Shown here: piece by piece, positions 6,764 through 52,599 of the stretch | Layout of the letters: the number at the start of each line of letters is the position of its first letter | Position numbering within the stretch: position 1 is the first letter of the stretch | From: Akkermansia sp. | Lineage (GTDB): Bacteria; Verrucomicrobiota; Verrucomicrobiia; Verrucomicrobiales; Akkermansiaceae | Direction of reading: 5' to 3' | Assembly (NCBI GenBank): GCA_045635265.1 | Contig: JAZRBU010000028.1 | Location: forward strand, 29,019-93,018 | DNA: 64,000 bases | Position numbers and translations under genes: made by a program | The notes under the pieces: model-generated | Databases searched by the model: none | Seen by the model: the letters and a program-made list of their open reading frames with translations, nothing else | Told to the model about the DNA's origin: nothing

Positions 6764-7634
6764 GGAAAATACTTCTGGTGAGGATATTGATAAGAAGGAT
6801 AAGCAAGCAGATGATGAGTGCCGCCCCCCAACCGGCAGCATGCATGCTCTCAAAGGGGGAATTCATGGTGTACTCGTTGATTAATACCGGAATGCTTGCC
6901 GTAGGGCGGGAGAAAAAGCCGCCGGGCCAGGCATCCGCAAACATGGCGGTAAACAGCAGCGGGGCTGTCTCGCCGCTCACTCTCGCCAGAGCCAGCAGCA
7001 CCCCGGTCACCAGGCCATTGCGCGCCGATCTCGCCACGATGCAAAGAGTGGCACGCGCGCGGCTCATGCCCAGCGCAAGGGAGGATTCCCGAAGCGTTAC
7101 CGGAACCATGCTGAGCATATCTTCCGTGGTTCGCATGACTACCGGGAACATGATGACAGCCAATGCCACAGCCCCTGCAAAGCCGGAAAAATTCCCCGTA
7201 CTCACGACCAGCAGCACATACACAAACAAGCCCACGATGATGGATGGCACCCCCATCATCACATTGGCACAAAAGCGAAGGACGGCGGCAAGTCTGCTGC
7301 CCTGCCCGAATTCTGCCAGATAGATACCACCCGCCATGGCCGGAGGCACGGCCAACAGAGTGGCGACACCCGTCATCATCAGGGTACCTAACAGGGCGTT
7401 GGCGATGCCGCCTCCCGGCTCTCCATAGGGCTTTGACGGGGAGGTCAGGAACTCCCACGAGATGCTTTGCGCCCCGTGTGTCAGCACAGTGCAGAGAATC
7501 CACCCCATGCCCCCGACTGCCAGCACCACGGAAAACAGAGAAAAGACTGAGAGTACCTTATTTTTGAGTTTCCGGAATAATAACGGTCTGCGCTGAGCCG
7601 CTGTCAGAACGGATGTTTGTTGATTGTTCATCAT
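6747..7634 (-). CDS. pstA: Phosphate ABC transporter permease PstA
   Basis: Multi-TM permease containing the EAA-like loop [18 protein letters not shown]. Overlaps the pstB start by 17 nt. Confidence 0.88.
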
Positions 7635-21225: not shown

Positions 21226-22386
21226 TTATTCAATCACGCCGCGGTCACGAAGACGCTGCAGGTACTTGGGAGCCCATTCCACGGGCTCATCCTTACCAAA
21301 CGTGCGGCAATAAGGCTCAATGGGATACATATCCTCGCATGCTTCCAGAGCTTCCTCTCGGGCTTCCGGAGTCTCATACAGGTAAACAGCATAACCGCCG
21401 TGACCGCCGCCGCAATACTTATGTGCCAGGCAGTCGCCGATTTTCGGCAGCGGAGCCATACCTTCCGCCAGCTGCAGCTTGTAGCTCATCTGCACGCCGA
21501 TGGCAAGCACGGCAACATCCTGCTCCTGAATACCGAGACGAGCCACGCGCGCAGCTTTGGCAATCTTGTCGAACTGACGCACCAGCCCCGCCAATCCGGG
21601 AGTGTTATGCTCAATACGGGTATCATATACTGCCATGCGCCCACGGAGGAAATCCCCTGTATTCTTGAAATCCAATACCGGCTTGGGTCCGGACTTCCAC
21701 ACGCAGGCACCGGTCTCTGCAATAACGGCCGGGTCCTGCCAGCCGACCCCCAATCCAAGCTCCGACGCCACGGGGTCCCAACCGTTCAGCACGCTCCAGC
21801 CGCCGCTGCCGCCCATACCGGCACCCTTGCGGTACAGCCACTCTTTGAGTGACACCGTGGGAGACACGGAACAATTAACCACATACTCCCCGGGAATGGC
21901 GTTCTCCGGCACATCCAGCCAGCCGCCGGCAAAATCAACACGCAGAGGGGCATGGGTGGGAGCCTTGATGCGATCCAGCATCGCCGTACTGCTGGCAGAC
22001 TTGCCCTCCGGTGCGGCTTTTTCCAACACGACAAACTCCACTCCGTTTTCCTCACAGAATCGGCGTTTTGCATCCTTGTAGCGGTCATCCGTGGTCACAG
22101 CCAGAACATCCGGCTTCACCTGCAGGAAGGCTGACTTAAAGGAAAGAGCCTTATCCTCATCTGTGGACAGCACAACCTCATCCACCTGTTCCAGAGAGGA
22201 AATCACGGACATTTTGTCCGCGTCATCAAGCAGAGACTTGCGTCCATACAGCTCCCACAGCAAATCAGACGGAGGGAAAGACACAATCAGATAATCTCCA
22301 AGTGCTCTTGCATCCTGAAAAAACTTGATATGGCCTGCATGCAGCACATGAAATGCACCGGATACGAATACTTTTTTCTTTTCCAT
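21226..22386 (-). CDS. Fusion: cytidylyltransferase-like domain + GHMP-type sugar kinase domain
   Basis: N-terminus SGAFHVLHAGHIKFF (HxGH). C-terminal half LRVDFAGGWLDVPE, GAGMGGSGGWS (GHMP motif II-like) and GGGHGGYAVYL. Confidence 0.65.
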   Translation of the reverse strand: MEKKKVFVSGAFHVLHAGHIKFFQDARALGDYLIVSFPPSDLLWELYGRKSLLDDADKMSVISSLEQVDEVVLSTDEDKALSFKSAFLQVKPDVLAVTTDDRYKDAKRRFCEENGVEFVVLEKAAPEGKSASSTAMLDRIKAPTHAPLRVDFAGGWLDVPENAIPGEYVVNCSVSPTVSLKEWLYRKGAGMGGSGGWSVLNGWDPVASELGLGVGWQDPAVIAETGACVWKSGPKPVLDFKNTGDFLRGRMAVYDTRIEHNTPGLAGLVRQFDKIAKAARVARLGIQEQDVAVLAIGVQMSYKLQLAEGMAPLPKIGDCLAHKYCGGGHGGYAVYLYETPEAREEALEACEDMYPIEPYCRTFGKDEPVEWAPKYLQRLRDRGVIE

Positions 22387-22408: not shown

Positions 22409-22837
22409 TTATTTCAAAAGCCCCAGCCAGCGGTAAAATGCACCGCTCAGGCCGGATTCATGGGCATCTGCCACGGGTGTTTTCTGCTCAGCGGGAGTCT
22501 GAGCGGCAATCCCGCTGCGGCTCACCAGCCAGCGGTGCAGGAGAGGCACCGCTACGGCGGAAAGCAACTGGAGTGCCACGGTCCGCCCACTCATTTCTCG
22601 CTCCAACGCCTGTTTCTTTTTCCGGCGCGCGGCAATTCTGGAGCTCACCACACCGGCGGCCACCAGCCCCGCCAGTGCAACACCGGATGCCTTGAGCACC
22701 CCTGCAGAGACAGGCAATGCCCTCACGCAGCCTGTCACCCCACGGCGAACAGCCTCCGTTGCATCCACTGCCCGCACGCGTGAAGCCGCAACCCGTGTCA
22801 GGGCTTGCTGTCGGGCTTGATCATTAACTTGAGACAT
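22409..22837 (-). CDS. Hypothetical membrane protein (YqjK-like position)
   Basis: Third gene of a yqjD/yqjE-like string. One hydrophobic segment. The start is uncertain because it overlaps the upstream gene by 40 nt. Confidence 0.4.
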   Translation of the reverse strand: MSQVNDQARQQALTRVAASRVRAVDATEAVRRGVTGCVRALPVSAGVLKASGVALAGLVAAGVVSSRIAARRKKKQALEREMSGRTVALQLLSAVAVPLLHRWLVSRSGIAAQTPAEQKTPVADAHESGLSGAFYRWLGLLK

Positions 22838-32764: not shown

Positions 32765-35700
32765 GTGAAATCCACTCTCCGTACCCTACTTGATTCCATA
32801 CGCGAAGCTACCCAACAAACATCTGAAGCTGATAAAGGGCACCGTTTTGAGGTACTCATGAAGCGGTATCTGCTGACTGACCCCACCTATAAGGCTCGAT
32901 TCTCAGATGTCTGGCTCTGGAATGAATGGCCCTATGCCAAAGGTCACGATGTGGGTATTGATATCGTGGCCAAAGAGGCTGATTCTGACCGTTACGTAGC
33001 CATACAGTGCAAATTTTATGAGCCTACACACCTGATGAGACTCCCTGATGTGCAGACTTTCTTCGCGGCTCTCAATGCCACCATCAATACTGAGTACAGC
33101 AAAAAGGACTCATTCGTACAAGGCATCATCATTGCCACGACTGACCATTGGAATGTAGTTCTGCTCAATAAATTGTATCAACAACACATTCCCTGCCAAC
33201 ACATCGGACTCTCTGACCTGGAAGAAGCCGCCGTGGACTGGTCTACCATTCTCAAAGGACAAGGTGAAATCGCAAAGTATCAGCCCCGCCCCCATCAGCG
33301 TGAAGCCATTGATGCCGTATTGGAGGGGTTCATGACTACTGACCGTGGTAAACTCATCATGGCCTGCGGTACCGGTAAGACTTTCACGGCTCTCCGACTG
33401 ATGGAAGAATTCACAGGTGGTAAGGGTTGTGTCCTGTTTCTTGCTCCGAGCATTGCCCTCGTTGCCCAAAGTCTGCGTGAATGGATGGCTCAAACAACTT
33501 GCAAAATCCATCCCATTGCCGTGTGTTCTGATGGTGAAGCATCCTCCATTGATGACTTGGTGGATTTGTCTGCTCGTGACCTCCCTGCGAGAGCTACCAC
33601 AGACCCCACGACTATTGCTCAACTGTATGCCAGATTCAAGGATAGCCATCTGACTGTTATTTTCTCCACATATCAGTCCATAGAGAAATTACATGAGGCT
33701 CAAAAGATCGGTGCATTGCCGGAATTTGACCTCTGCATCTGTGATGAAGCCCACCGCACGACAGGTGTTTCCCTCTATGATGAGAAGAAGGGTAAGCACC
33801 ATGAATCTCACTTCACCAAAATTCACAAGCAGGACTACATCGCATGCCGTAAGCGAGTCTACATGACTGCCACGCCGAAGATTTATGCCGAATCTGCGCG
33901 ACAAAAAGCAAAGGATACCAATGCAGAACTGGCTTCAATGAATGACCGTTCCTACTTTGGGGATGAATACTTCCGTCTGCCCTTCTCCCGTGCTGTTCGC
34001 GAGGGTCTGCTCACCGATTATAAAGTGCTGGTGCTCTGCGTTGATGAGGATTACGTAAAGGACATCATGGGGGAGCAACTCCAACAGGATGAAACAGGCG
34101 CCATTGAACTGGATGATGCCGTGCGACTTGTTGGCTGTTATAACGGACTGCGTAAAAAAGTCTTGTTGCCCGCCAATGCTGCTGCAGGTAATGCTGATTC
34201 CTACGACCCATCTCTCCCCGAACTACTTTCTCACGATGAGGACTTCCTTACCTCTGACCCGGGGCCGATGAAACGTGCGGTATCCTTTGCCAATGTCATC
34301 AAGGCTTCCAAGAATTATACCGAGATGTGGGGTAAGGTTGTGAATGCCATCCGCAAGGATGAAGAGGACGATTCTTCTTTCCTTGATAGCGAGATGCAGC
34401 ATGTGGATGGCAACATGGACATGGGAGAACGCGCGGCTCTGCTCTCGTGGCTCAAAGGTAATGCAGGAACAAACGCCAATCATGGTGTACCCGAATGTCG
34501 TATTCTCTCCAATGCTCGCTGCTTGTCAGAAGGTGTGGATGTTCCGTCTCTGGATGCGGTCATGTTCCTTGCACCTCGTAAATCGCAGGTGGATGTGGTG
34601 CAGTCCGTGGGGCGAGTGATGCGAATTGCTCAGGGTAAGAAGTTCGGTTACATCATTCTGCCCATCGGTATATCTCCCAGGGATAAGCCCGAAGAAGTGC
34701 TGGATAAGGATGAGAAGTATCGTGTGGTTTGGGATGTTCTGCAAGCTCTCCGCTCACACGACGACCGCTTCAACGCTGAAATCAACTCCATTGAACTCAA
34801 CAAGGGCCGAGGTAAACGTATCGTAGTAGGTGGTGTTACCGGGAAAAAGGGCAAGAAGCGCAACCCGAAAAAGAAGGATGGTTATGATGAATACGAGGAG
34901 GATGTACTCGTTGCCAAAGAAGGCGATGACAAACAGCTTTCCTTTGATTTTGACTTTGAGAAAGAATTACCCGCATGGACGGATGGTATCCTCGTCCGCA
35001 CCGTTCAGAAGTGCGGCGACAGGCGTTATTGGGAGGATTGGGCAAAGAACATCGCCAAGATTGCAGAAAAGCAGACAGCGGCTATCAACACACTTCTGGA
35101 TAAGGGTATTGGTTTGGCGGAGTTCCAACTCTTCCTGTCAGGTCTGCGAGAAAACACGAACCCTGCCATTACCGAGGCTGATGCCATTGAAATGTTGGCA
35201 CAGCAATTCATCTCCCGACCTGTGTTCAATGCGCTCTTTGAGAAGTATCAGTTCGCAGAGAACAATCCTGTCTCCAAGACCATGAACGACATGCTGGACA
35301 TCGTGCAGCAGAACACCGATGCCAATGACTTGCGAGAACTACGCCGCTTCTATGATTCAGTGAAAGACCGAGCCCAGAGCATTGATAACGCTGCCGGGCG
35401 TCAGCAGGTGGTCGTAGAACTTTACGACAAGTTCTTCAAGCAAGCATTCCCCAAGTTGGCCGAGAAACTGGGTATCGTTTACACCCCCATCCCTGTGGTA
35501 GACTTCATCGTGCATTCCGTCCACAAGGTGCTGCAACAGGAATTCGGGGTCAAAGATGGTCTGGGGGCCCGTGGTGTAAAGATTCTTGACCCCTTTACAG
35601 GAACAGGCACATTCATCGTCCGCGCCATCCAGAGCGGCCTTATCAAACGCAGCCAACTGCCTTACAAGTATCGTAACGAACTCTTTGCCTGTGAAATTGT

Positions 35701-37660
35701 GCTGCTTGCCTACTACATCGCGTGTGTAAACATTGAGGTGGCTTATCATGGTGTCATGAAGCAGGAGGAATACGAACCGTTCAATGGTATCTGCTTGACC
35801 GATACTTTCCGCATGGATGGTAACAGTGCTGCTGATAAGGACTTGTTCGCAGCCTTTGAGGATAACGGCGAGCGTGTGAAGAACCTCTGCAAGCAGGACA
35901 TCCGAGTGATTATCGGTAATCCTCCTTATTCTGCCAAACAAGAGTCTGCAAACGATAACAATCAGAATGAAGCCTATCCATACTTGGATGAGCGTATCGC
36001 TAATACATACGCTAAGAATGCCAAGGCTACTAACAAGAACAGTCTCTACGACTCATACATCCGTGCATTCCGATGGGCATCCGACCGCATTACCGATGAT
36101 GGTATCCTCGCCTTTGTAACCAATGGTGCATACATTGATAACAACGCCATGACTGGCTTCCGTCAGTCCCTCATGGACGAGTTTGATTCCATCTACTGCT
36201 TCAATCTCCGAGGAAACGCTCGCACATCAGGTGTTCAGCGTCAGAAGGAAAAGGGTAATGTGTTCGGTGAGGGGTCTCGCACACCGATTGCCATTATCAT
36301 CCTCGTCAAGAAGAAGAACCGACCTGCTGGTCAGCTGGCTACGCTTCATTATCACGACATCGGTGATTATCTCTCTCGTGAGCAGAAACTTGAAATCATC
36401 CAGGGGTTTGGTAACTACTCTGGTATCCCTTGGCAGCCACTCATCCCTGATGAACACGGAGATTGGCTCAATCACCGCACATCTGGTTATGATAAGTTCC
36501 TGTCCATCGGTGATAAAGCCACCAAGGGTAAGCCTGATACCAAGGCTCTCTTTACCTTGTTCTCCAATGGGGTAAAGACGAACCGTGACACATGGTGTTA
36601 TAACTATTCTCGCGTTGCGTTGGAAAGCAACATGCGCCGTAGTATTGAGTTCTTCAATACTCAATCAGGACTTGCAGAATTTGACTACGACCCCACCAAA
36701 TTCTCATGGGGAAGACAGCAGAAAAAGGATGCAGAGCGTGGTAAGCAATACTGTTTCTCTGCTTCATCCATCGTCCCTGCTGTTTATCGTCCGTTCTGTA
36801 AGCGTCATGGATACATCCATAAAGACATGAACGACATGCTTTATCAGATACCTAAACTGTTCCCTACACCACAGCATAAGAACTTGGTAATTCAACTAAC
36901 AGGTAATGGTTCTAGCAAACCGTTCTCTTGTCTTATTAGTGCGATAACGCCAGATTTACAGGTAATGTTCAATGGACAGTGCTTCCCCCTCTACTGGTAT
37001 GAGGAACGGAATGCCGATGCGCCGATGCTTGACCTTGGTATGGAAGCCGATGCAGGTGATTACATCCGTCACGATGGCATCTCAAACTTCGGACTCAAAC
37101 AGTTCCGAACAGCCTACGGAGACCCCAAGATTGGTAAGGAGGACATCTTCTATTATGTGTATGGGCTGTTGCATAGCACAGAATACCGCACACGCTTTGA
37201 GAACGACCTGAAAAAGGAACTTCCCCGCATCCCCTTTGCCAAGGATTTCTGGGCATTCTCCAAGGCCGGCCGTAAGTTGGCAGAACTCCATCTGAACTAT
37301 GAGACGATAGAACCTTGGCCAATCAAGGAATACTCCCATGGTAACTTCCGAGTGACCAAGATGCGTTTCCCCAAGAAAGGAATTCGTCACACCATCATCT
37401 ACAATGACTCATGTACGCTGAGTGAGATTCCCGAAGAGGCATACGAATACATCGTGAATGGCAAGTCCGCCATCGAATGGGTCATGGAGCGCTATGCCGT
37501 CACCATAGATAAAGATAGTGGTATCACCAATGACCCGAATGACTGGTGTGACGAACAAGGCAATCCCCGCTACATTATTGACCTCGTGAAACGCATCGTC
37601 CGTGTCAGCATGGAAACCATGGAGATAGTAAAAACCTTGCCCCCGCTGGAGGAGATGTGA
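32765..37660 (+). CDS. Type ISP restriction-modification enzyme (Mrr-like nuclease + SF2 DEAH translocase + N6-adenine methyltransferase + TRD), LlaGI/LlaBIII-like
   Basis: GTG start. Nuclease motif GIDIVAK...AIQCKFY (D...QxK). Helicase motifs: I ACGTGKT (about 33367), II DEAH (33742-33753), VI QSVGRVMR. MTase motifs: I LDPFTGTGTF, IV NPPY (35918-35929). 1631 aa as a single polypeptide. Confidence 0.85.
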   Translation: MKSTLRTLLDSIREATQQTSEADKGHRFEVLMKRYLLTDPTYKARFSDVWLWNEWPYAKGHDVGIDIVAKEADSDRYVAIQCKFYEPTHLMRLPDVQTFFAALNATINTEYSKKDSFVQGIIIATTDHWNVVLLNKLYQQHIPCQHIGLSDLEEAAVDWSTILKGQGEIAKYQPRPHQREAIDAVLEGFMTTDRGKLIMACGTGKTFTALRLMEEFTGGKGCVLFLAPSIALVAQSLREWMAQTTCKIHPIAVCSDGEASSIDDLVDLSARDLPARATTDPTTIAQLYARFKDSHLTVIFSTYQSIEKLHEAQKIGALPEFDLCICDEAHRTTGVSLYDEKKGKHHESHFTKIHKQDYIACRKRVYMTATPKIYAESARQKAKDTNAELASMNDRSYFGDEYFRLPFSRAVREGLLTDYKVLVLCVDEDYVKDIMGEQLQQDETGAIELDDAVRLVGCYNGLRKKVLLPANAAAGNADSYDPSLPELLSHDEDFLTSDPGPMKRAVSFANVIKASKNYTEMWGKVVNAIRKDEEDDSSFLDSEMQHVDGNMDMGERAALLSWLKGNAGTNANHGVPECRILSNARCLSEGVDVPSLDAVMFLAPRKSQVDVVQSVGRVMRIAQGKKFGYIILPIGISPRDKPEEVLDKDEKYRVVWDVLQALRSHDDRFNAEINSIELNKGRGKRIVVGGVTGKKGKKRNPKKKDGYDEYEEDVLVAKEGDDKQLSFDFDFEKELPAWTDGILVRTVQKCGDRRYWEDWAKNIAKIAEKQTAAINTLLDKGIGLAEFQLFLSGLRENTNPAITEADAIEMLAQQFISRPVFNALFEKYQFAENNPVSKTMNDMLDIVQQNTDANDLRELRRFYDSVKDRAQSIDNAAGRQQVVVELYDKFFKQAFPKLAEKLGIVYTPIPVVDFIVHSVHKVLQQEFGVKDGLGARGVKILDPFTGTGTFIVRAIQSGLIKRSQLPYKYRNELFACEIVLLAYYIACVNIEVAYHGVMKQEEYEPFNGICLTDTFRMDGNSAADKDLFAAFEDNGERVKNLCKQDIRVIIGNPPYSAKQESANDNNQNEAYPYLDERIANTYAKNAKATNKNSLYDSYIRAFRWASDRITDDGILAFVTNGAYIDNNAMTGFRQSLMDEFDSIYCFNLRGNARTSGVQRQKEKGNVFGEGSRTPIAIIILVKKKNRPAGQLATLHYHDIGDYLSREQKLEIIQGFGNYSGIPWQPLIPDEHGDWLNHRTSGYDKFLSIGDKATKGKPDTKALFTLFSNGVKTNRDTWCYNYSRVALESNMRRSIEFFNTQSGLAEFDYDPTKFSWGRQQKKDAERGKQYCFSASSIVPAVYRPFCKRHGYIHKDMNDMLYQIPKLFPTPQHKNLVIQLTGNGSSKPFSCLISAITPDLQVMFNGQCFPLYWYEERNADAPMLDLGMEADAGDYIRHDGISNFGLKQFRTAYGDPKIGKEDIFYYVYGLLHSTEYRTRFENDLKKELPRIPFAKDFWAFSKAGRKLAELHLNYETIEPWPIKEYSHGNFRVTKMRFPKKGIRHTIIYNDSCTLSEIPEEAYEYIVNGKSAIEWVMERYAVTIDKDSGITNDPNDWCDEQGNPRYIIDLVKRIVRVSMETMEIVKTLPPLEEM

Positions 37661-37672
37661 TATAGTATCTAT

Positions 37673-38491
37673 ATGGGAGAAAAGAAGTATACGAGATTAT
37701 CACGCCAAGAAATCGAGTTGGCGCTCGCAAATACGCAAATGAAAGTAGGCGAATTAGCCCAGCTAACTCTGAGCAGTATTCTTCAGCATCCCGATTTTCC
37801 CTCTGAATACTTAGAAAAGTTCAGATGTAAAAATTTTAGCAAAAATACTTTCGGTCTTTCCAGAGCACTATTAATCAGAAGAAGAGAATGGGCCAAAACT
37901 CCTCAATTACCTTACTATGCGGAATATCTGGAATGTAATGGCAAATATTACTGTCTTTGTTCAGAATGGACAGAACGACAGCTACCAAAATTAAAAAATT
38001 GGGTTAATCGTCACAAAATCGATTTGAGTGAACGCCGGAACCTTTGGCAACTTGAAGAAGCACATCCTCAACAGAAAAACCGATGGGCTGTAGTTGAATT
38101 AGAACAATTGTGCCAGGATAAAATCATTCCCTGTGGCAGAATCAAACGAGGAAAAGGAAATGATAGATTAATAAAGATTTCAAAAACCGATTGGCTGGGA
38201 ATAGTGGATAAAGAACCAAATCGCATCGTCTTCCGTTTCAGAAAGAATAATATATATAGGCTATACGCTGTTTCTACGAGTTTGATTCGCGAAACAATAA
38301 ATGCTTTCCCGCATAGATTTTCAAAAACAACAGCTAGCGAATACTGGAGTTTTTCATTAAATATTTTATCTGGCAAACTTAGTAATACTCAAGGTTCACC
38401 GAGAACAGCATTTGCTACATGTTATGTATACATTGCGAGACCGACAGCGTCTTCCAAAATTCAGTCTCCACAGAAAAATATTAACACCTGA
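37673..38491 (+). CDS. Hypothetical protein (272 aa), no recognisable domain
   Basis: ATG 12 nt after the RM stop, on the same strand. Very AT-rich. Coding-like composition with no internal stops. Confidence 0.6.
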   Translation: MGEKKYTRLSRQEIELALANTQMKVGELAQLTLSSILQHPDFPSEYLEKFRCKNFSKNTFGLSRALLIRRREWAKTPQLPYYAEYLECNGKYYCLCSEWTERQLPKLKNWVNRHKIDLSERRNLWQLEEAHPQQKNRWAVVELEQLCQDKIIPCGRIKRGKGNDRLIKISKTDWLGIVDKEPNRIVFRFRKNNIYRLYAVSTSLIRETINAFPHRFSKTTASEYWSFSLNILSGKLSNTQGSPRTAFATCYVYIARPTASSKIQSPQKNINT

Positions 38492-38538
38492 TTTCTTATC
38501 CGTCAAAAAGCAAACTTTAAAAAAACTACATTTTTGAT

Positions 38539-40587
38539 ATGAACTACCTCTCAAAAGTAGAAGCAAAGAAAGCCGTCTTATCTGATGGCAAAAACATTTG
38601 CAACATGTCTTTCAGCCTCCGTGATGACGACGAATTAGCATGGTTGGCAATTGAACACGGAGCGTCTATCAATGATGTCTCTTACAGACTACAAAATGAC
38701 CTTGCCTTTTCTCTTAAATATGCGAGATATTGCGCCAAATTGGGAATAGTTGAACAAAATTTCTTCAGAGCATTATTTATTGCACAACATTCTCTTGAAT
38801 TCCTTAACACTTACTGTTCACTATTTGCAAATGAGCCGGAGTTCATTATGTACTTGAAGCTTGCTCATGGAAAGAATTATAGATCTCCCATAGTCTCACT
38901 CAACAAATATGAAGGAGAAGAGCTGGCTCACATCATCAATCAATATAAGCGCAACCTGATAAAAGAATTGAAAGAGGAATATTATTCCCATTCTTATCAG
39001 GAAATGCATTTAAAAACAGGTTACAATGCAGCAAATGAACTGCGTAATTTCGCCCTATTGTCACGTGGTGACAACCTTCCGTTCTGCGAGATTCCTGAGC
39101 TGATAAAAAAACAAATTGAACGCTTAGATACACAAGTTGATTGTTTGAGAGCAACTAGCAGGAAAGGCTCATTTCCTGAACGCGTCATAGATGCCATTCT
39201 TAAGCAACTCAATGTTGCATTTGACCGAGAAGTTGTTTTCCAGTGGAGTCGCCCTAATAATGCAAACAAATTAAATGGTTACAAGCGTTATGACTTCTAT
39301 CTTCCTGAATACAATGCAATAATAGAAGTGCATGGAGCTCAACATTATTCGGCAGGGTTCGAAACATTCGGCGGGCGTTCTCTGAAGGAAGAACAGGCCA
39401 ACGATCACTTAAAACAAGCATTAGCTAAACAAAATGGCATTACCAATTATATCGTCATTAATGCCGCAGTTTCCAACTTTTATTATATTAAAGAATCAGT
39501 CATTTCGAATAAAGATTTCTCTACTTGCTTCGATTTATCAAAATTAAACTGGCATGAGATAAAAATAGCAACTATAGAGGAACCAGACATAAGCTTACCC
39601 TTATATCAATTACAAAAATCTTTTTATGAAGAACTGAGTTCTCTATTCAATAACACCTTCTCTGTTATCCCAATCCAACAACCATCTAAAGATTTTGGTG
39701 AAGGGTGTTCGGAAGAGACTTCCAAACTGACAATATGGAAAAAAAGCATCAAAGTCAGTATGCGAGGTCTGTATCCTCATGAAATCATATTGCTAGAGCG
39801 AGCCAAGCGTTCATCGGCACCGGAAATGACATGTCCAGTTGATGCTGACAATGTTATTGGTAAGTGGTACTATGAATATGGAATCTCAAATGTGCGTCCC
39901 ATAGTTGAACGATTGGCTGATTCAGGATTTATACAAGTAGGAGGACTACGATATACACTTCAACGCACAGAAGCTAATAAACTCAAACAGTTTGCTTCCA
40001 AACAAGGCATAAAGGCTCATGGCAAGAAAGAAGAAATTATCGCTCGAATTCTCGAAAACATTCCCGAACACATTATCAAAGAGACCTTCACTAAACAGTA
40101 CTATGAGCTAACGGAATTAGGCAAACAAGAGCTGAATGAAAACAGCTACATTTTTGATGCCATTCAAGTTCCGATTCTGGACGCAATGACTCGAATCAAA
40201 TTAGCGCAGCAACATCCCGATCAGGACATCTATGAAGTCATACAGAGACACCTCAAAGGTCATGAACCCTCTACCGGCTGCACAAATACAGACTCCGCAC
40301 AAAGTGCTACAAACTACGATGAGGGTGATAAATACCAGATCATTTGTACCCTGGACAAAAAGACTTGCGAGCGATGTGGTTCGATGGATTTGAAAGTTTT
40401 TGACTATGCACAAAAGGAAATAGGTGTTACTTACCCACCATTCCACGATGGTTGCCGCTGCTGTGCAGTACCGTATTTTGACGGAGACGAACATAATGAG
40501 CGTGCAGCACGAAACAGAGACGGCAAAACCATCTTTGTGGAAAATATGAATTGGCAAGAATGGAGAAAAGTATATGGCAGCAACTAA
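38539..40587 (+). CDS. Multidomain hypothetical protein: DUF4116-like N-terminal repeats + DUF559/Vsr-like PD-(D/E)xK core + SAP motif + C-terminal phage MuF-like Cys-rich domain
   Basis: RYDFYLPEYNAIIEVHGAQHY...EQANDHLKQALAKQNGI (nuclease-like, about 39241-39500). LKQFASKQGIKAHGKKEEIIARIL (SAP-like). LDKKTCERCGSMDLKVF...YPPFHDGCRCCAVPY (MuF/SPP1 gp7-like, about 40351-40480). Confidence 0.6.
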   Translation: MNYLSKVEAKKAVLSDGKNICNMSFSLRDDDELAWLAIEHGASINDVSYRLQNDLAFSLKYARYCAKLGIVEQNFFRALFIAQHSLEFLNTYCSLFANEPEFIMYLKLAHGKNYRSPIVSLNKYEGEELAHIINQYKRNLIKELKEEYYSHSYQEMHLKTGYNAANELRNFALLSRGDNLPFCEIPELIKKQIERLDTQVDCLRATSRKGSFPERVIDAILKQLNVAFDREVVFQWSRPNNANKLNGYKRYDFYLPEYNAIIEVHGAQHYSAGFETFGGRSLKEEQANDHLKQALAKQNGITNYIVINAAVSNFYYIKESVISNKDFSTCFDLSKLNWHEIKIATIEEPDISLPLYQLQKSFYEELSSLFNNTFSVIPIQQPSKDFGEGCSEETSKLTIWKKSIKVSMRGLYPHEIILLERAKRSSAPEMTCPVDADNVIGKWYYEYGISNVRPIVERLADSGFIQVGGLRYTLQRTEANKLKQFASKQGIKAHGKKEEIIARILENIPEHIIKETFTKQYYELTELGKQELNENSYIFDAIQVPILDAMTRIKLAQQHPDQDIYEVIQRHLKGHEPSTGCTNTDSAQSATNYDEGDKYQIICTLDKKTCERCGSMDLKVFDYAQKEIGVTYPPFHDGCRCCAVPYFDGDEHNERAARNRDGKTIFVENMNWQEWRKVYGSN

Positions 40588-40868: not shown

Positions 40869-42536
<1,668 letters not shown>

Positions 42537-42555: not shown

Positions 42556-42840
42556 TTAGTCGATAACGGCGAGGATGTCGCTCTCACTGAGGATGGTGTA
42601 GGTGGTGCCGTTGTAGGTGACCTCCGTGCCGCCGTACTTGGCGATGAGCACCTTGTCATTCACAGCCACATTGAAGGGGATGAGGTTGCCGTCCTTATCA
42701 CGGCCGCCGGTACCGATGGCGCGAACGATGGCTTCCTGGGGCTTCTCCTTGGCGGTATCCGGAAGGAAAAGGCCGCCTGCAGTCTTGGTTTCGGCTTCTA
42801 CACGCTCTACGAGCACTCGCTGTCCTAATGGTTTAATCAT
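42556..42840 (-). CDS. groES: Co-chaperonin GroES
   Basis: [37 protein letters not shown]. 94 aa. Confidence 0.95.
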
Positions 42841-42874: not shown

Positions 42875-42922
42875 ATAGAAAGAGGGGATTCCCGGGCGGG
42901 TGTTCCGGCACCGCGCCCGGGA
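42875..42922 (-). terminator. GC-rich hairpin between dnaK and groES (terminator/attenuator)
   Basis: tcccgggcg (42890-42898) pairs with cgcccggga (42914-42922). The minus-strand tail is aatcccctctttc. Confidence 0.5.
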
Positions 42923-42936
42923 GGGATGAATGATTT

Positions 42937-44871
<1,935 letters not shown>

Positions 44872-44942
44872 CTATTGTTATGTTGTTTTGTTTGTTTAGA
44901 ATCTTCGGCGTCGTGATGAGACGCGCTCTTACTTTCTTATGT

Positions 44943-44958
44943 TGCAAATTGCGTGCCA
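44943..44958 (-). promoter_or_regulatory. Sigma-54 (-24/-12) promoter consensus upstream of dnaK
   Basis: The minus strand reads TGGCACGCAATTTGCA, matching TGGCACG-N4-TTGCW exactly with correct GG-N10-GC spacing. The -12 element lies about 87 nt upstream of the dnaK ATG. Confidence 0.6.
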
Positions 44959-45076
44959 ACTTTGATTTTTTTGTGATTTTTTATGCCAAAATCGTCAAAA
45001 AAGCTCATTTTTCAGACTTTTTGACTGCGTCTTACCCTACCCTCGACAGCTAAGATAACCGCTGCGACACACGCAG

Positions 45077-45133
45077 ATGCGGCATTTTGCCCCACCGGCA
45101 TGCGACAAAACGCACCATGCGGCATTTTGCCGC
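45077..45133. promoter_or_regulatory. Repeated dyads GCGGCA-TTT-TGCCGC (x2) plus related inverted element; candidate enhancer/operator sites
   Basis: atgcggcattttgcc occurs at 45077-45091 and 45117-45131 (exact 15-mers, 40 bp apart), with tgcgacaaaacgca at 45101-45114 between them. The sites lie 120-175 bp upstream of the sigma-54 element and 125-180 bp upstream of the tal ATG. Confidence 0.5.
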
Positions 45134-45257
45134 ACATCGACCGTCCGATTACAAATCGGGTGCATAAAGTATCATCTAAAACGTGTTGAATCAAGTTGCA
45201 GGCTTGAAGAGAAGCCGAAAATATGCTAGAATACTGCCACAGCATACAAGTTACATT

Positions 45258-46214
45258 ATGGCAACACAGCTTGAGCAATTGAAAAAGTACACGACCGTCG
45301 TGGCCGATACGGGTGATTTCCGTCAAATGGAAGAATTCTCTCCGCAGGATGCCACAACCAATCCTTCTCTGATTCTGGCCGCAGCCGCCAAGCCGGAGTA
45401 CCGCCCGATTCTGGACGCGGTGGTGGCGGATTTCAAGGCCACGGTAAGCAACCCTGCCGAGCGAGTGGGCGAGCTGATGGATCGCGTAATTGTCGCATTC
45501 GGTCTGGAGATTCTCAAGCGCGTGCCCGGTCGAGTATCCAGTGAGGTGGATGCCCGTCTTTCCTTTGATACCGAGGGCACCGTGACCAAGGCCCGCGAAA
45601 TCATGGCACTGTATGAAGCCGCCGGGATTCCGCGCGAGCGCGTGCTGATTAAGATAGCCTCCACCTGGGAAGGCATACAGGCAGCCCGCCAGCTGGAGCA
45701 AGAGGGCATTCACTGCAACCTGACCCTGCTGTTCAGCCTGGTGCAGGCCGTTGCCTGTGCAGAGGCAGGCGTGCGCCTCATCTCCCCCTTCGTGGGCCGC
45801 ATTCTGGACTGGTACAAGAGCAGCACCGGTCAGGATTACACCTCTGAGACCGACCCCGGCGTCATCTCCGTGCGCACCATTTACAATTACTACAAGAAGT
45901 TCGGCTACCCGGTGCAGATTATGGGTGCTTCCTTCCGCAACACGGGTGAGATTCTGGCTCTGGCCGGCTGCGACCTGCTGACCATTTCCCCGAACCTGCT
46001 GGCTGAGCTGGCCGGCAGCGAAGAGCCGGTGACACCGGTACTGACCCCGGAGGCTGCTCAGGCCAGCGATATCGAGCGTATCCCCGCAGACGAAAAGAGC
46101 TTCCGATTCCTCTTCAACGAGGACGCCATGGCCACGGAAAAAACGGCTGAAGGCATCCGTAAATTCTCTGCAGACATCCGCAAACTGGAGGCCCTGCTGG
46201 CTTCCATGCTCTGA
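45258..46214 (+). CDS. tal: Transaldolase (type B)
   Basis: Trimmed to the ATG at 45258 ([21 protein letters not shown]). Active-site region KIASTWEGI. Confidence 0.93.
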
Positions 46215-47376: not shown

Positions 47377-50300
47377 TCAGAACTTGATAGAGGTATTGAT
47401 GTTGGCGCTGTAGTTGACAGCGTCACCCATGACTTCCAGAGCGGCGTTGGCGCCGACACTCCAGGAGGCATTGATATCATACGCAGCACCGACGCGCACA
47501 CCGGCGCCAACAGTACCGGGATTGGCTCCCTCTGCGCACCAGCCATTGACGGAGGGCATGGGATTATCACGCATGAGATCACCCAGGAAGCGGGCTTCCG
47601 CATACATCACAGTAGAAGCATAGCGGCGGGTAATACCGGTACCGAACTCAGCGCGAAGGTTGCGGATTTCACCGCTGTCAACCCCGGCAACAGTATCGCC
47701 CGTGTTCATGTAGTACTCCAAGCCGCCGAAGACGTTGACCGTAGTCGTATCGGAAATGGAGCGGCTCCAGTCCAGACGACCATTCAGCTGAAGGCTGTCC
47801 TGCTCCCAGGACATGGAGGAAGCACGGGAGGGCGTAGATTCCACAGAACCGTAAACGGCAGACCAGCTGAAGGTGATACCACTGGTATCACTCAGCCGCT
47901 TGATGACGGATGCACCGTAGACACCAACATAAGTACCGTCCTGCTCCATCTCATCCAGCATACCGTCGGGAGTCACATCCGTGGTATTCACGCCGATGGC
48001 CAGACCCACACAGGAAGTCTTGCCCAGCATGGTCTCGATACCGAAGGCGGCACCAAGGGTGGAGGTATCACTACCGCGCTTCACGCCGTCGTCTCCCACA
48101 GACATGCTGTTATAGAGAGCGGATACCCAGACGGAGGGACCATTCTCACCCACAGAACCGGAAGCGGAACGCTGGCCCTGCAGAGCATCGGCAAAGGCGT
48201 GAGAAGCGGCAAACATACCCCAGTTGCTCTGCACCATAAGATCACGCAGCTCACTATTGGAGATGGACCACTTGCCGTTCGTGTGCTCATACACCTTGTC
48301 AAGGTCAAGAAGCACCTGCACCTTGCCTTCCGTCTCCTTGAGCGTCAGGGCATATTCGGTGTTGGGATTACCGTCATCGTAGTTCAGCACAAGCTGCCCG
48401 AAATCACCGGTAAGAGAGGAAGATTCCATCAGCACGTCGCCGTCGGCATACTTGCCGGCTTCCAGCTGCACAAGCGTATCTGCCGTGAGCGTGATGGAAC
48501 CGGAAACAGTCAGCTTGCAGCCATCGGAAACAACAGCCATGCTGCGCTTCTGGGAATCCTTCATGCCATTGAAGTAAACCGTACCGCCATTGAGACGGAG
48601 ATTGCCGTCCAGTTTGGCATTGCGGTCCAGAACAATAGCCGTGGCATTGCCGGTGCGGACATTGCCGGTAAGGCTGCCGCCGCGGAAATAGAGTCCCTGC
48701 TTGCCGGAGAGTACCAGCTGCACGCCCTCATCCGCCACCATACGACCGCCGTTCAGGTAGATATTGCCGGCACCCAGAGCTTCCTCACGTGCAATGCGAA
48801 GAGCGCCGTCGTTCACAGTCATATCACCGGTGGAAGAATTCTTGCCGCGCAGAACAGTCTCACTGTCCATCACGGTAATAGAGGTATCACCCTTGAGCGC
48901 AACATCGATAGATGCAGGACCGGTGGCAATGATATCCGTATCCTTGAGGGAACCGCCCTTGACGGAACCGCTCTCCAGAGCAACCTGTGCAGCGGTGGTA
49001 TCATCCCCCACGGTCACATCACCCATGATGGAAAGCTTGCCGTCATAGGCCGTACCGGAGAACTCACCGCCGCGGGCAATGACATTGTTCTTCACAGCGT
49101 ACTCACCCATATTGAGCTTACCGCCCGTCAGTTCAATATCACCGGAACCGAAGGAATCTGCACCGCCGGCATTCACCGTGCCGTCTTCGATGGAGGTACC
49201 GCCTTCATAGGTGTTCGCGGCGTTCATATTCAGCGTACCCTTACCGCGTTTGATAAGAGAAGCCTTGCCAACGATAGAGCCGGAACCGCCGAAGGAGACA
49301 TCCTCAGAACCCTCCACCTCAATGGAAGCAGGACGCACATCACCCACGATTTCCACCGTACCGCCGTTATTGAAGACAACCTTGTCTCGGTTGTAGAAGC
49401 GTGCATCATCGGCATCGGTATCCCATTCCTGGTCACCGAGCTGGGACCACACGCCCACCTGACCGGATTTCCAGTACAGCGTGGCGGGATTCTCCTCCAC
49501 CTTCAGCATGAGAGAGGAACCGCTGACGGCGAGCGTATTCACGTTACGCGTATCCGTCACGGGAGTCAGCATGGCAAGGTCACCGCTGATGCTGCCGGCA
49601 TTCACCAGCACATAGTTTCCTCCGTTCTCGTAGTTATTGACGTCAAGAACCGTATCGGAGAGAATCGTCAGAGCACCGCCCACCTGAAGCGTGATGCCGG
49701 GTCCGCCGGGAATCAGCTTGCCGCCGTTAAGCGTCAGCTCACCGGAAACGGAAGAGATGTCCGTGTAGGAGATAGAAGAATCGGCAGCAGATTCCAGAGA
49801 ACCCTGCAGATTACCGCCGCTGAACTTGACATCCTGACCGGAAACAAGCACCAGGGGAGTCTCAGGATTCAGAGAACCGCCCTGCAAGTCCATATCTGCG
49901 GTAGTGCTGCCCTGCAGAGAGAGCATGCCGTTCTGAACCGTAATCAGGCCGGTGGTGGAGTGGTCGCCGCGCAGCACCGTGTTCCCCAGCACCGTGAGGT
50001 TGGTCTTACCAACAAGCAGAGTCTCAATCGTCACGCCTTCAGCGGTGATGGAAGTATCCTTCAGGGAACCGCCGGTGATAGTAGCAGCCTTGAGCACCAC
50101 GGAAGAAGCGGTAGTATTCTCACCAATAGTAGCCGTACCGGTCACGCTGAGCGTACCCGCATAGGCCGTACCGGAGAACGTACCGGAATTGACCATCACG
50201 TTGTTGCTCACGGCATATTCACCCAGCTCCAGATTACCGCCTTTCACAGTGATATCACCCGTACCGAAAGCCTTTTCATGACCGGCGATAAGCGTACCGT

Positions 50301-52401
50301 TAAGCAGCTCTGTTCCGCCGGAGTACTCGTTTGCGAGAGAAATCTTCAAGGAACCGTCACCCTGTTTGGTGAGCTTCATGTCACCGGCAAGCTTACCACC
50401 GGAAGGATCAGCCACCCATTCATAGGCACCGGCGGTGGTATTATCCACCAGCACCATGGACGGACGAAGCTCGCCCTTGAGAGTGACCGTACCGGCAGCG
50501 GTGTCGGTAAACGTAGCGGATGCACCGTTGGAGAACGCGTAGGCCTGACCGTTCTGCTCCCAGTTGATAGCTACGGAGCTCCAGACGAAGTCGCCGTCAC
50601 CGTTGGCCCAGGTAGCATCCAGAAGCGCAGGCAGCGTGGTGTAGTAGTACAGAACGCGGAGGGCACCCTCAGTCTCCCAGCGCAGATTGGCATAGGTCAC
50701 ATCAAAACCAATCTCAGGAGCACCGATTGCCGTCAGATTAGCAGATGTCCAGCCATCCAGAGCCACGGCTTCAGCCATTTCCATGAGCTTGTACTTACCG
50801 TCCGTCAGCGGAGAATCCACTACAAGATTGATTGTAGAACCGGCATTGAACGTCACCGATGTCTCGGAATTCAGAAGCACACCGGAAGCGGTGAGATTCA
50901 GGGCATTCACCTCAAAGGTCAGCGAGTTGTTACCGTCGAAAACAATACCGACGGCTTCGATGGTGCTGCCGGTGCCCTTGACATGAAGCTTAGACCCAGA
51001 GGAGAACACGACACGACCGTCTCCCTGATTCACTTCCAAATCTTCAAAAACAGAAGCGGCAACTGCACCGTTATTCAGATACAGCGTAGAATTGTTGCCG
51101 GCAATAAAAGCACCGGTCAGGTAAACTGCACCGTCCGTCACCATCATGCGGCCGCCGTGAACCGTAGTCACGCCGAGTGCCAGAGAGGTGGAGGAAAGAG
51201 TCACCTCCTCTGCGGAAGGAGTGGTCGGGTTTGCCTCCTCAGGATTTGCGCCTTCAGCCTTGAATGCCGTCAAATCTTCCAGCACATTACGGGCGGAGAA
51301 AATCACATCACCGGCAGCCTGCTCTGTTGTACCGGCTGCGTTGGTGTACGGGGCATTGATGCTGACCGAGCAGTCCACATTGATGGGGTCATAGAACGTA
51401 ACCGAAGAATTGGCACCTGCAGAAACGTTAAGAGCACCTTTGTAATCGGTCTTCATACCGATACTTTCGAGGTAATAAGCCTCACCGTCACGGAAGCTGG
51501 CATAAACACCGTTATTGCGGAATGTCACAGAATCATTACCGGCGATGGTAATAGAGTTCAGCGCACCGACGGCAGCACCCAGAGCATCACCGCCGCGAGC
51601 AGAGGTCACGGAAAGGCGGTTTCCCTGGAAGACAACGTCCTCGTTGTTGACAATCCGTACATCGTTACCGAAAACAGCACCGCCGCAACCGAACGCCTCA
51701 GTCCCATCCCCTCCGTCCACGCTCAGAACCAGCTTATTGGCCTGAATACTGACGTCCTTATTATTGGCAATCTCCATCGTCACGCCGCCGAGCGTACCAC
51801 CCAAAGCGTGCCCCTTGCGCATCTCATTTCCCTCGGTAGCAACGTCCACCGTCGTAACATTGCGGGTGATATTGATATTGCGGTTATTGCGGATAGAGAA
51901 GGTATCCCCGTTGTCTGTAAATCCGGCCAAATCACCCAGGGTATCCGTCTCGTCGCTGATTTCAGGCAAACCGGCCGCCATCACGCCGCCCATAAAGGCA
52001 AAGTTCGTCTTTACACCGACATCAACCGTACTACTGTCGACCGTGAGATTATTGAGACCGACAAAAGTCAAATCACCGACAGTCAGAAGCTTACCACCGG
52101 AAGACATATTGATACTGCCGGGGTTATCATTGCTCCAGCTGGTGAAGAGGACATCCTTCACCCCATCAGTGAACAGAGAGTATGCCGGGTTCCAAGTAAT
52201 GGTAAAGTTCGACACGTTATTGGCCGATTTGAGCAGGAAGGCGGCCTGCTTCTGGCTACCGGCCACATCGCTGGGCTGAGTCACAGTAATCTGGGCATAA
52301 CCATTCGGCACATCACTGATTCCGCCGAACGTTACGGCGGGGAATGCCACCACGGCTGCTACAAGCGCGTGGAACAAAGACACGGGGAGGTGTGGTTTCA
52401 T
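47377..52401 (-). CDS. Autotransporter outer-membrane protein with PATR-type beta-strand repeats
   Basis: Trimmed to MKPHLPVSLFHALVAAVVAFPAVTF (ATG at 52401). Repeated GGTxxxxGTLxxG...FGTGDI modules. The C-terminal ~280 aa form a beta-barrel-like region ending ...NINTSIKF. Confidence 0.85.
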   Translation of the reverse strand: MKPHLPVSLFHALVAAVVAFPAVTFGGISDVPNGYAQITVTQPSDVAGSQKQAAFLLKSANNVSNFTITWNPAYSLFTDGVKDVLFTSWSNDNPGSINMSSGGKLLTVGDLTFVGLNNLTVDSSTVDVGVKTNFAFMGGVMAAGLPEISDETDTLGDLAGFTDNGDTFSIRNNRNINITRNVTTVDVATEGNEMRKGHALGGTLGGVTMEIANNKDVSIQANKLVLSVDGGDGTEAFGCGGAVFGNDVRIVNNEDVVFQGNRLSVTSARGGDALGAAVGALNSITIAGNDSVTFRNNGVYASFRDGEAYYLESIGMKTDYKGALNVSAGANSSVTFYDPINVDCSVSINAPYTNAAGTTEQAAGDVIFSARNVLEDLTAFKAEGANPEEANPTTPSAEEVTLSSTSLALGVTTVHGGRMMVTDGAVYLTGAFIAGNNSTLYLNNGAVAASVFEDLEVNQGDGRVVFSSGSKLHVKGTGSTIEAVGIVFDGNNSLTFEVNALNLTASGVLLNSETSVTFNAGSTINLVVDSPLTDGKYKLMEMAEAVALDGWTSANLTAIGAPEIGFDVTYANLRWETEGALRVLYYYTTLPALLDATWANGDGDFVWSSVAINWEQNGQAYAFSNGASATFTDTAAGTVTLKGELRPSMVLVDNTTAGAYEWVADPSGGKLAGDMKLTKQGDGSLKISLANEYSGGTELLNGTLIAGHEKAFGTGDITVKGGNLELGEYAVSNNVMVNSGTFSGTAYAGTLSVTGTATIGENTTASSVVLKAATITGGSLKDTSITAEGVTIETLLVGKTNLTVLGNTVLRGDHSTTGLITVQNGMLSLQGSTTADMDLQGGSLNPETPLVLVSGQDVKFSGGNLQGSLESAADSSISYTDISSVSGELTLNGGKLIPGGPGITLQVGGALTILSDTVLDVNNYENGGNYVLVNAGSISGDLAMLTPVTDTRNVNTLAVSGSSLMLKVEENPATLYWKSGQVGVWSQLGDQEWDTDADDARFYNRDKVVFNNGGTVEIVGDVRPASIEVEGSEDVSFGGSGSIVGKASLIKRGKGTLNMNAANTYEGGTSIEDGTVNAGGADSFGSGDIELTGGKLNMGEYAVKNNVIARGGEFSGTAYDGKLSIMGDVTVGDDTTAAQVALESGSVKGGSLKDTDIIATGPASIDVALKGDTSITVMDSETVLRGKNSSTGDMTVNDGALRIAREEALGAGNIYLNGGRMVADEGVQLVLSGKQGLYFRGGSLTGNVRTGNATAIVLDRNAKLDGNLRLNGGTVYFNGMKDSQKRSMAVVSDGCKLTVSGSITLTADTLVQLEAGKYADGDVLMESSSLTGDFGQLVLNYDDGNPNTEYALTLKETEGKVQVLLDLDKVYEHTNGKWSISNSELRDLMVQSNWGMFAASHAFADALQGQRSASGSVGENGPSVWVSALYNSMSVGDDGVKRGSDTSTLGAAFGIETMLGKTSCVGLAIGVNTTDVTPDGMLDEMEQDGTYVGVYGASVIKRLSDTSGITFSWSAVYGSVESTPSRASSMSWEQDSLQLNGRLDWSRSISDTTTVNVFGGLEYYMNTGDTVAGVDSGEIRNLRAEFGTGITRRYASTVMYAEARFLGDLMRDNPMPSVNGWCAEGANPGTVGAGVRVGAAYDINASWSVGANAALEVMGDAVNYSANINTSIKF
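48919..49204 (-). repeat. Internal ~95-aa duplication, copy B, within the autotransporter passenger
   Basis: GGTSIEDGTVNAGGADSFGSGDIELTGGKLNMGEYAVKNNVIARGGEFSGTAYDGKLSIMG...GGSLKDTDIIATG parallels copy A. Confidence 0.8.
50035..50330 (-). repeat. Internal ~95-aa duplication, copy A, within the autotransporter passenger
   Basis: GGTELLNGTLIAGHEKAFGTGDITVKGGNLELGEYAVSNNVMVNSGTFSGTAYAGTLSVTG...GGSLKDTSITAEG. Confidence 0.8.
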
Positions 52402-52599
52402 ATATGTATATAGTTGAAATATCGGAAGATAGGAGCCCCGAACATAAATCGGGGAGGACTCTGCTGCTGATTCCGCACATCTTCCGGGCACAAAAACCGG
52501 CAACAAAATCTCTACTTTGTCCATTCTACCCTATCATCTTATGGAGTCAAGCTAAAAGAAAACATTTACCAAGATTATTAGTTCTTTCTTTACGCAACA

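Follow-up and report, generated by a model that had tools for sequence, protein, structure and literature searches.

The dnaK-groES-groEL gene cluster analyzed here is located on the minus strand of a 64,000-nucleotide stretch of Akkermansia sp. DNA (contig JAZRBU010000028.1), which is called the window below. The cluster comprises dnaK (positions 42937-44856, 639 amino acids; NCBIfam NF001413, E = 9e-288), groES (42556-42840, 94 amino acids; NCBIfam GroES) and groEL (40869-42521, 550 amino acids; NCBIfam GroEL, E = 1e-261). The 400-bp intergenic region upstream of dnaK (44857-45257) ends at a divergent transaldolase gene that starts at position 45258. Within this region is the sequence TGGCACGCAATTTGCA (44943-44958, minus strand), which matches the -24/-12 consensus of promoters recognized by RNA polymerase carrying sigma-54 (RpoN). 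Its exact match to the consensus, its conservation among orthologous loci and its score in a matrix scan make it very likely that dnaK is transcribed from this element by sigma-54 RNA polymerase; the downstream groES and groEL genes are probably served by the same promoter. We give this reading, which is drawn from sequence comparison, a probability of roughly 0.8.

The core promoter consists of a -24 element, TGGCAC (44953-44958, with its GG at 44956-44957), and a -12 element, TTGCA (44943-44947, with its GC at 44944-44945), both on the minus strand. With its flanks, this strand reads gt-TGGCAC-gcaat-TTGCA-ac, and the GG and GC dinucleotides are exactly 10 nucleotides apart, as in the sigma-54 pattern TGGCAC-N5-TTGCW. 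The core is oriented toward dnaK, and 87 nucleotides separate the last base of its -12 element from the dnaK ATG (44856, minus strand). The original prediction, which had been made from the sequence alone, described an exact consensus match with the correct dinucleotide spacing on the minus strand, flanked by T and A and aimed at a dnaK ATG about 87 nucleotides away, and every one of these details was borne out. The pattern TGGCACG-N4-TTGCW occurs once in the window; by comparison with windows shuffled so that dinucleotide content is preserved, 0.04 matches are expected, and one match was present in 4 of 100 such shuffles. When up to two mismatches are allowed, the consensus shows no enrichment (36 matches in the window and 43 expected), so statistics on the single window hang on one exact match. 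A second exact match, to TGGCAC-N5-TTGCT at 22563-22578 on the minus strand, was rejected as a promoter and is regarded as background; it is located inside an open reading frame (ORF) and is not accompanied by the inverted repeats described below. This ORF is upstream of a cytidylyltransferase-like gene (21226-22386).

The core is always found upstream of dnaK in the Akkermansia species compared. A scan with the DnaK protein, limited to one genome per species, yielded 80 loci, all from Akkermansia or Akkermansiaceae metagenome-assembled genomes, the closest of which is 99% identical. Together with the window, these 80 other Akkermansia species form the set of 81 loci used throughout. The best 120 DnaK homologues are likewise all from Akkermansia, with identities of at least 89%. 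The sequence TGGCA(C/T)-N5-TTGC(A/T) is present 63 to 101 nucleotides upstream of the dnaK ATG in 81 of 81 loci. Among the 80 other species, the -24 element reads TGGCAC in 58 and TGGCAT in 20, and CGGCAC and the -12 variant TTGCG occur once each. In the profile of the 81 sites, positions T0, G1, G2, C3, A4, T10-T12, G13 and C14 show little or no variation, and four spacer columns accept every base. The GG and GC dinucleotides are the same in all 81. Fixed dinucleotides around a free spacer constitute the footprint expected for sigma-54 recognition.

When approximately 1.5 Mb of Akkermansia DNA was searched on both strands, 79 of the 88 matches to the core were the dnaK promoter. The gene on the far side of the intergenic region differs among species, with more than 40 arrangements and neighbors on either strand. 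Because this upstream neighbor varies while the promoter module stays, the module belongs to dnaK. For the same reason, the possibility that the inverted repeats regulate the divergent transaldolase gene was rejected. Apart from the inverted repeats, the core and the region of the predicted transcription start, the intergenic DNA lacks conservation among species.

The original prediction had also proposed a scan of the genome with a sigma-54 matrix as a measure of background. With a position-specific scoring matrix (PSSM) derived from the 81 Akkermansia sites, the core in the window scores 36.2 bits, all other sites in the window score at most 10 bits, and the maximum in shuffled windows is 13.2 bits. 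These scores, like those based on the inverted-repeat consensus, are partly circular because both models were built from orthologous sites, which detracts from their weight in favor of a sigma-54 promoter; the conservation itself is more persuasive.

Upstream of the core are 17-bp inverted repeats, or dyads, that are putative activator sites. The proximal dyad, TGGGGCA-AAA-TGCCGCA (45078-45094), starts 136 nucleotides upstream of the first T of TGGCAC, and the distal dyad, TGCGGCA-AAA-TGCCGCA (45118-45134), is perfect and starts 176 nucleotides upstream of this T. A possible middle site, GGTGCGTTTTGTCGCA (45101-45116), retains an intact right half, TGTCGCA, but its left half is degenerate, and it is the weakest of the three. 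A middle dyad at a spacing of 17 to 25 bp is frequent in other Akkermansia species. The Akkermansia dyads conform to the 17-bp consensus T-GCG(R)CA-WWW-TG(Y)CGC-A, a family represented by the form TGCGGCAAAATGCCGCA, and two to four copies are present in 77 of the 81 loci. They are found about 65 to 180 nucleotides upstream of the core, most commonly starting 103, 117, 121, 146 or 160 nucleotides upstream of the TGGCAC T, and the preferred spacings from dyad to dyad are 18 to 19, 25, and 43 to 44 bp. When one mismatch is allowed, the dyad density is 8.2 per kb in the 250 nucleotides upstream of the core versus 0.09 per kb elsewhere in the loci, which is a roughly 90-fold difference. The most divergent Akkermansia species have relaxed dyads, such as TGAGACA-TTT-TGTCTCA and TGTGACA-AAA-TGTAACA.

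Between the dyads and the promoter is an AT-rich spacer with A/T tracts (44959-45077), which is likely a region of bending or looping. In 79 loci, this spacer has a median length of 90 bp, contains about 2.5 A/T tracts, and is 64% A+T, versus 44% for the loci overall. A consensus site for IHF occurs in the spacer of only 9 of these 79 loci, so intrinsic bending is likelier than an IHF site.

Known enhancers for the NtrC family of sigma-54 activators include the NtrC site, TGCACCA-N3-TGGTGCA, and the LuxO site, TTGCA-N3-TGCAA. The Akkermansia dyads resemble NtrC-family enhancers in that they are 17-bp elements with a 7-3-7 geometry, with CA...TG around a 3-nucleotide A/T center, and in that tandem copies are present approximately 100 to 200 bp upstream of a -24/-12 promoter. 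In sequence terms, they are also within the distance of roughly 80 to 200 bp from the promoter that is expected of upstream enhancers. This geometry, and the tandem copies at enhancer distance, are suggestive of NtrC-family activator sites. In contrast to known enhancers of the family, the half-site is TGCG(R)CA (in distant lineages, the looser TGTG(N)CA or G-N-CA), and the targets are chaperone genes, not genes for nitrogen metabolism or quorum sensing.

Similar modules are found beyond Akkermansia. Metagenome contigs were scanned for a composite pattern, comprising the core and an exact dyad 85 to 115 nucleotides upstream, and at least 120 contigs matched. Among the 120 matches listed, 10 are directly upstream of heat-shock genes, with identities confirmed by sequence or Pfam. 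These genes are dnaK (contigs L092, L122, L152, L164 and L200), groES (L144), hsp20 (L081, L182 and L108) and a Clp ATPase gene (L104). By comparison, none of the 28 matches to the same pattern in viral contigs is located at a chaperone gene. The DnaK proteins of L152 and L200 are 81% identical to that of the window. L122 (63% identity) is from the Limisphaerales, an order of Verrucomicrobiota, and L164 (61%) is from the Pirellulales, in the class Planctomycetia.

Additional loci extend both of these more distant groups. In five more Limisphaerales loci (L201-L205), a dnaK-groES-groEL cluster is preceded by a TGGCAC-N5-CTGCT core about 56 nucleotides from the ATG, and the dyads have the form TGTGCCA-N3-TGTCACA. 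In six more Planctomycetia loci (L235-L240), dnaK-clpB is preceded by an exact CTGGCACGG(G/C)CTTTGCT core 72 to 88 nucleotides from the ATG, with a conserved GGCCAAAATGGC dyad upstream of the core. The part of the dyad that is invariant across Akkermansia, Limisphaerales and Planctomycetia is G-N-CA-N3-TG-N-C. The gene order downstream of the promoter varies by lineage, with dnaK-clpB in Planctomycetia and dnaK-groES-groEL in Limisphaerales, as in Akkermansia.

One phage-like contig, L221 (IMGVR_UViG_3300045999_010097), has a related arrangement on its reverse strand near position 929. A perfect dyad, GCGGCATAATGCCGC, is followed by tandem sigma-54-like cores, TGGCACGATTATTGCT and TGGCATGGAATTTGCA, and then by a short stretch that ends in the hairpin ccggaccc-ttat-gggtccgg. 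This might be a phage transcript that is wired to a sigma-54 stress activator of the host, or it may have arisen by chance.

In sigma-54 promoters, transcription starts about 12 nucleotides past the GC of the -12 element. On this basis, the start for dnaK is predicted at 44932-44933 (minus strand), 12 nucleotides downstream of the C of this GC, where it opens a conserved (G/A)GTAAG sequence. The G at the predicted start is conserved in 66 of the 81 loci. The predicted 5' leader of dnaK (44857-44931, minus strand) is A-rich and includes the stem-loop GCGTC-tcatcac-GACGC (44908-44924, minus strand). Most of the 81 loci have a stem-loop in the region of about +10 to +30, with stems whose sequences vary from species to species; examples are GGGCTCA/TGAGCCC, GTCTGC/GCAGAC, GTGGCA/GCCAC and CTCCCT/AGGGAG. 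When the first 45 nucleotides of each leader were folded individually, the mean z-score of the minimum free energy was -2.4 relative to shuffled sequences, and 72% of loci were below -1.5. RNAalifold did not find a consensus structure in leaders aligned by MAFFT, since an alignment of this kind does not bring hairpins with unrelated sequences into register, so the hairpin claim rests on the per-sequence folding. The stem-loop probably stabilizes the mRNA.

The groES gene follows dnaK in all loci, mostly 75 to 100 nucleotides downstream, and the sigma-54 PSSM does not reveal a site near groES in any locus (best score, 9.8 bits). It is plausible that groES and groEL are co-transcribed with dnaK from the sigma-54 promoter. 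The spacer between dnaK and groES in the window includes a GC-rich hairpin, CCCGGGCG...CGCCCGGG (42891-42921, minus strand), without a clean U tract. Possible roles for this hairpin are partial termination, processing that sets the dnaK:groESL ratio, or stabilization. The original prediction had placed the whole dnaK-groESL block under RpoN control. Phylogenetic footprinting strongly supports this proposal for dnaK, whereas for groESL, which the hairpin separates from dnaK, such control is a plausible consequence of co-transcription.

Expression of the cluster from a sigma-54 promoter presupposes an rpoN gene, the absence of which would have spoken against the original prediction. At the level of the genus, this gene is present, as the RpoN protein of A. 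muciniphila is encoded by Amuc_0021 (PMC12552655). An RpoN box was not detected in the window or in the 80 other Akkermansia loci.

Several observations weigh against the proposed promoter function. The GAFTGA and Walker A signatures of enhancer-binding proteins are absent from the window and from the 80 other Akkermansia loci. A search of the DNA up to 10 kb from dnaK in about 90 loci, including those of Limisphaerales and Planctomycetia, and of the 10 kb past the right end of the window did not reveal a gene for such a protein. Moreover, most of the listed matches to the composite pattern in metagenomes are chance occurrences, with a single dyad and unrelated ORFs downstream. The public RNA sequencing runs that include the locus lack the depth or purity required to place the transcription start, and low-depth contigs (2-3) from two of them, X26 and X6, span the promoter, although these may represent DNA carry-over. 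Finally, because DnaK and GroEL are abundant housekeeping proteins, a sole promoter that requires an activator would need substantial basal activity of this activator, or else the genes would need a second promoter.

With respect to the RNA data, the runs that include the window (X1-X6) mostly match dnaK coding sequences of other species. Runs X19, X26, X31 and X33 cover the orthologous locus L062 at a depth of 2 to 6, with gaps even inside genes. A contig from X19 starts at position 9949 of L062, which is 3 nucleotides from the predicted start. This run has about fivefold, patchy coverage with gaps within dnaK, and because the coverage is patchy throughout, the contig end does not constitute evidence for the start.

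Genes for bacterial enhancer-binding proteins were observed beside the composite matches on contigs L084, L119, L167 and L179, but they were rejected as candidate activators because they belong to unrelated systems, such as PilR with pilin. On the metagenome contig L179, with a core near position 6851 in the oriented sequence, genes for a histidine kinase and an NtrC-type enhancer-binding protein are directly upstream of a sigma-54 promoter that is accompanied by a GCGACAGACTGTCGC dyad. This promoter is followed by genes for small stress-type proteins (YciE/DUF892-like), and it may be part of a paralogous system that uses the same type of dyad.

Promoters of the sigma-54 type have been associated with stress genes in several bacteria. 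Accessory examples are the E. coli pspA promoter with its activator PspF, the ibpB promoter, and the lonD promoter of Myxococcus xanthus with HsfA and HsfB. In these systems, as proposed here, sigma-54 and an enhancer-binding protein induce stress or heat-shock genes. However, they are single-gene accessories in organisms in which sigma-32 or HrcA runs the core chaperones, whereas in Akkermansia the sigma-54 promoter belongs to the operon of the core chaperones, which does not have a classical element.

The closest precedent is in Flavobacterium psychrophilum, for which Guerin et al. (2021, PMC9723704) used 5'-end RNA sequencing and identified a -24/-12 motif, SM4. The mapped starts with this motif precede groES-groEL, lon, dnaK, grpE-dnaJ, htpG, skp and clpB, and the genes belong to a co-expressed cluster (B254) for quality control under stress. 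Of three PF00158 proteins in this organism, none was assigned as the activator (PMC9723704). The Akkermansia locus shares with SM4 the position of a -24/-12 promoter directly upstream of dnaK. It differs in phylum, as F. psychrophilum is a member of the Bacteroidota, and in that the starts are mapped there and predicted here. In addition, no upstream activator site was described for SM4, whereas a 17-bp dyad is defined in Akkermansia. Each chaperone operon of F. psychrophilum has its own promoter, whereas in Akkermansia dnaK and groESL are adjacent and the promoter is found only at dnaK.

A 2025 in silico survey used PSSMs to predict sigma-54 regulons across phyla (Carrera-Reyna, Cruz-Flores and Merino, PMC12316311). 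Genes for GroEL, GroES, IbpA, GrpE, DnaJ, DnaK and the Clp and Lon proteases were enriched among the predicted promoters in Planctomycetota and Bacteroidota, with which our Planctomycetia loci agree. In contrast to the present analysis, the survey does not name Verrucomicrobiota or Akkermansia for the chaperone cluster, does not describe an activator or an upstream site, and is based on PSSM evidence only. The survey credits the sigma-54 dependence of grpE and groES in Bacteroides thetaiotaomicron and F. psychrophilum to its reference 80, a paper on the Blattabacterium genome. This citation looks misplaced, as the F. psychrophilum evidence is actually in PMC9723704. In the literature, we found no paper that deals with sigma-54 in relation to dnaK for Akkermansia or other Verrucomicrobiota.

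The observed features are consistent with the following mechanism. Sigma-54 RNA polymerase would bind the GG of the -24 element and the GC of the -12 element and form a closed complex that cannot open by itself. Dimers of an NtrC-family enhancer-binding protein, encoded elsewhere in the genome, would occupy the tandem 17-bp dyads (two or three) about 135 to 175 nucleotides upstream and would assemble into an ATPase ring. Looping of the AT-rich, tract-bearing spacer would bring this ring into contact with the closed complex, which would then be opened through ATP hydrolysis. Transcription would begin near 44932, and the resulting mRNA would start with the probably stabilizing 5' stem-loop. The activity of the activator would be the control point. 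The signal is most likely protein-folding stress, such as heat, since heat-shock genes (dnaK, groES, hsp20 and clp) follow the module in several lineages.

The alternative that survives best is one of dual control. Perhaps the sigma-54 promoter is used only for induction under stress, and basal expression of dnaK and groESL originates from a second promoter of housekeeping type, located in the same intergenic region or before groES. Such an arrangement would satisfy the constant need for high levels of DnaK and GroEL, and the hairpin that parts dnaK from groES, as well as the low-depth X26 and X6 contigs across the core, which could reflect starts farther upstream, would fit it. However, these contigs have a depth of only 2 to 3 and may be carry-over, and the intergenic DNA other than the dyads, core and start region is unconserved. 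No sigma-70-like site is present on the dnaK strand of the intergenic region (44857-45257), as judged by the E. coli consensus, although the promoter consensus of Verrucomicrobiota is poorly defined. The sole sigma-70-like site in this region faces the opposite way, toward the transaldolase gene. On balance, we consider a second promoter unlikely, but it deserves serious attention.

A different idea is that the dyads are repressor operators, analogous to CIRCE for HrcA or HAIR for HspR, and that the sigma-54 element is incidental or minor. Classical heat-shock control of dnaK and groESL does use inverted-repeat operators, the dyads are inverted repeats, and the window and loci searched do not include an activator gene. 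CIRCE itself (TTAGCACTC-N9-GAGTGCTAA, with up to two mismatches per arm) is absent from the whole window. A relaxed scan for the sigma-32 pattern CTTGAAA-N11-16-CCCCATNT gave 13 matches in the window, none of which is within 44857-45257. The original prediction, which had noted neither CIRCE nor a sigma-32-type promoter, is therefore upheld on this point. The dyads do not overlap the promoter or start but are 65 to 180 nucleotides upstream of the only conserved promoter element, and in three lineages they accompany a -24/-12 core that is strictly conserved. Sigma-54 promoters need an activator, and the 7-3-7 format and tandem layout of the dyads fit NtrC-type enhancers. Repression through the dyads thus seems improbable.

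Slightly less credible still is a role for the sigma-54 holoenzyme as a roadblock, in which a poised complex mainly dampens other transcription and is not productive. Stable closed complexes of sigma-54 can occlude overlapping promoters in E. coli and Salmonella, but no overlapping promoter was detected here. The locus has the features required of an enhancer-dependent promoter that is productive, namely conserved tandem dyads, an AT-rich spacer suited to looping, and a fixed distance to dnaK, and the equivalent promoters of F. psychrophilum have mapped starts. Lastly, although an expectation of 0.04 per window is not negligible on the scale of a genome and the relaxed consensus is not enriched, a chance match without function is effectively refuted by conservation in place in 81 of 81 loci around a free spacer, by the conserved dyads alongside, and by recurrence in two other lineages, and on this comparative evidence, which is decisive, the core is not a chance match.

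Given that CIRCE and sigma-32 promoters were absent when sought, the design of the Akkermansia locus as a sigma-54 promoter differs from textbook models of chaperone control. HrcA is used by Chlamydia, which is also in the PVC group (PMC8762339). Control by HrcA/CIRCE or sigma-32 has the same target genes and presumably the same purpose as the system proposed here, but it operates by de-repression or by replacement of the sigma factor, in contrast to the proposed ATPase-driven activation of a closed complex. The original prediction called sigma-54 control of these genes an unusual heat-shock design. This is apt in comparison with sigma-32 and HrcA but is overstated, because sigma-54 chaperone promoters have been mapped in F. 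psychrophilum (PMC9723704) and predicted in Planctomycetota and Bacteroidota (PMC12316311).

Other features of the window are unconnected with the promoter. A low-GC island on the plus strand (approximately 32765-40587; GC 0.38-0.46 versus about 0.55) is just downstream of groEL, on the opposite strand. It includes ORFs of 1631 (32765-37660), 272 and 682 (38539-40587) amino acids, and the C terminus of the last has a weak match to the phage SPP1 gp7/minor capsid (MuF-like) domain. The island looks like horizontally acquired DNA. In addition, a 1715-amino-acid ORF on the minus strand (47377-52524) has autotransporter-type beta-strand repeats (TIGR02601) and is a candidate for a large surface protein.

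To our knowledge, the regulation of chaperones in Akkermansia has not been described previously. Sigma-54 chaperone promoters are already known as a kind from Flavobacterium; what is new here is the case in Verrucomicrobiota, the definition of the tandem 17-bp site, and the core of this site that is shared by sigma-54 chaperone promoters of Verrucomicrobiota and Planctomycetia. Within Verrucomicrobiota, the design is found in the Akkermansia and Limisphaerales lineages at least, and Planctomycetia share it. Combined with the map of start sites in Flavobacterium, the present loci suggest that sigma-54 and an ATP-dependent activator, and not sigma-32 or HrcA, control the core proteostasis genes in large parts of the PVC and FCB groups.

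More speculatively, a single conserved NtrC-family protein that recognizes G-N-CA-N3-TG-N-C dyads might act with sigma-54 to control a core chaperone regulon that takes in dnaK, groESL, clpB, hsp20 and further genes. Such a regulon would extend over Verrucomicrobiota, Planctomycetota and possibly Bacteroidota. We hold this proposal tentatively, and the odds are somewhat against it. If true, it would represent a third major bacterial heat-shock design, beside sigma-32 and the HrcA, HspR and CtsR repressors. Stress could then be sensed by the ATPase activator itself, for instance if free DnaK or GroEL kept it inactive, by analogy with the way in which PspA holds PspF.

The promoter, the three putative activator sites, the looping spacer and the leader hairpin form a cis-regulatory map that can be tested, and the dyad consensus is a direct handle for finding the activator and its stress signal. 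Akkermansia is a much-studied gut symbiont and a candidate probiotic, and it relies on chaperones to tolerate heat, oxygen and processing.

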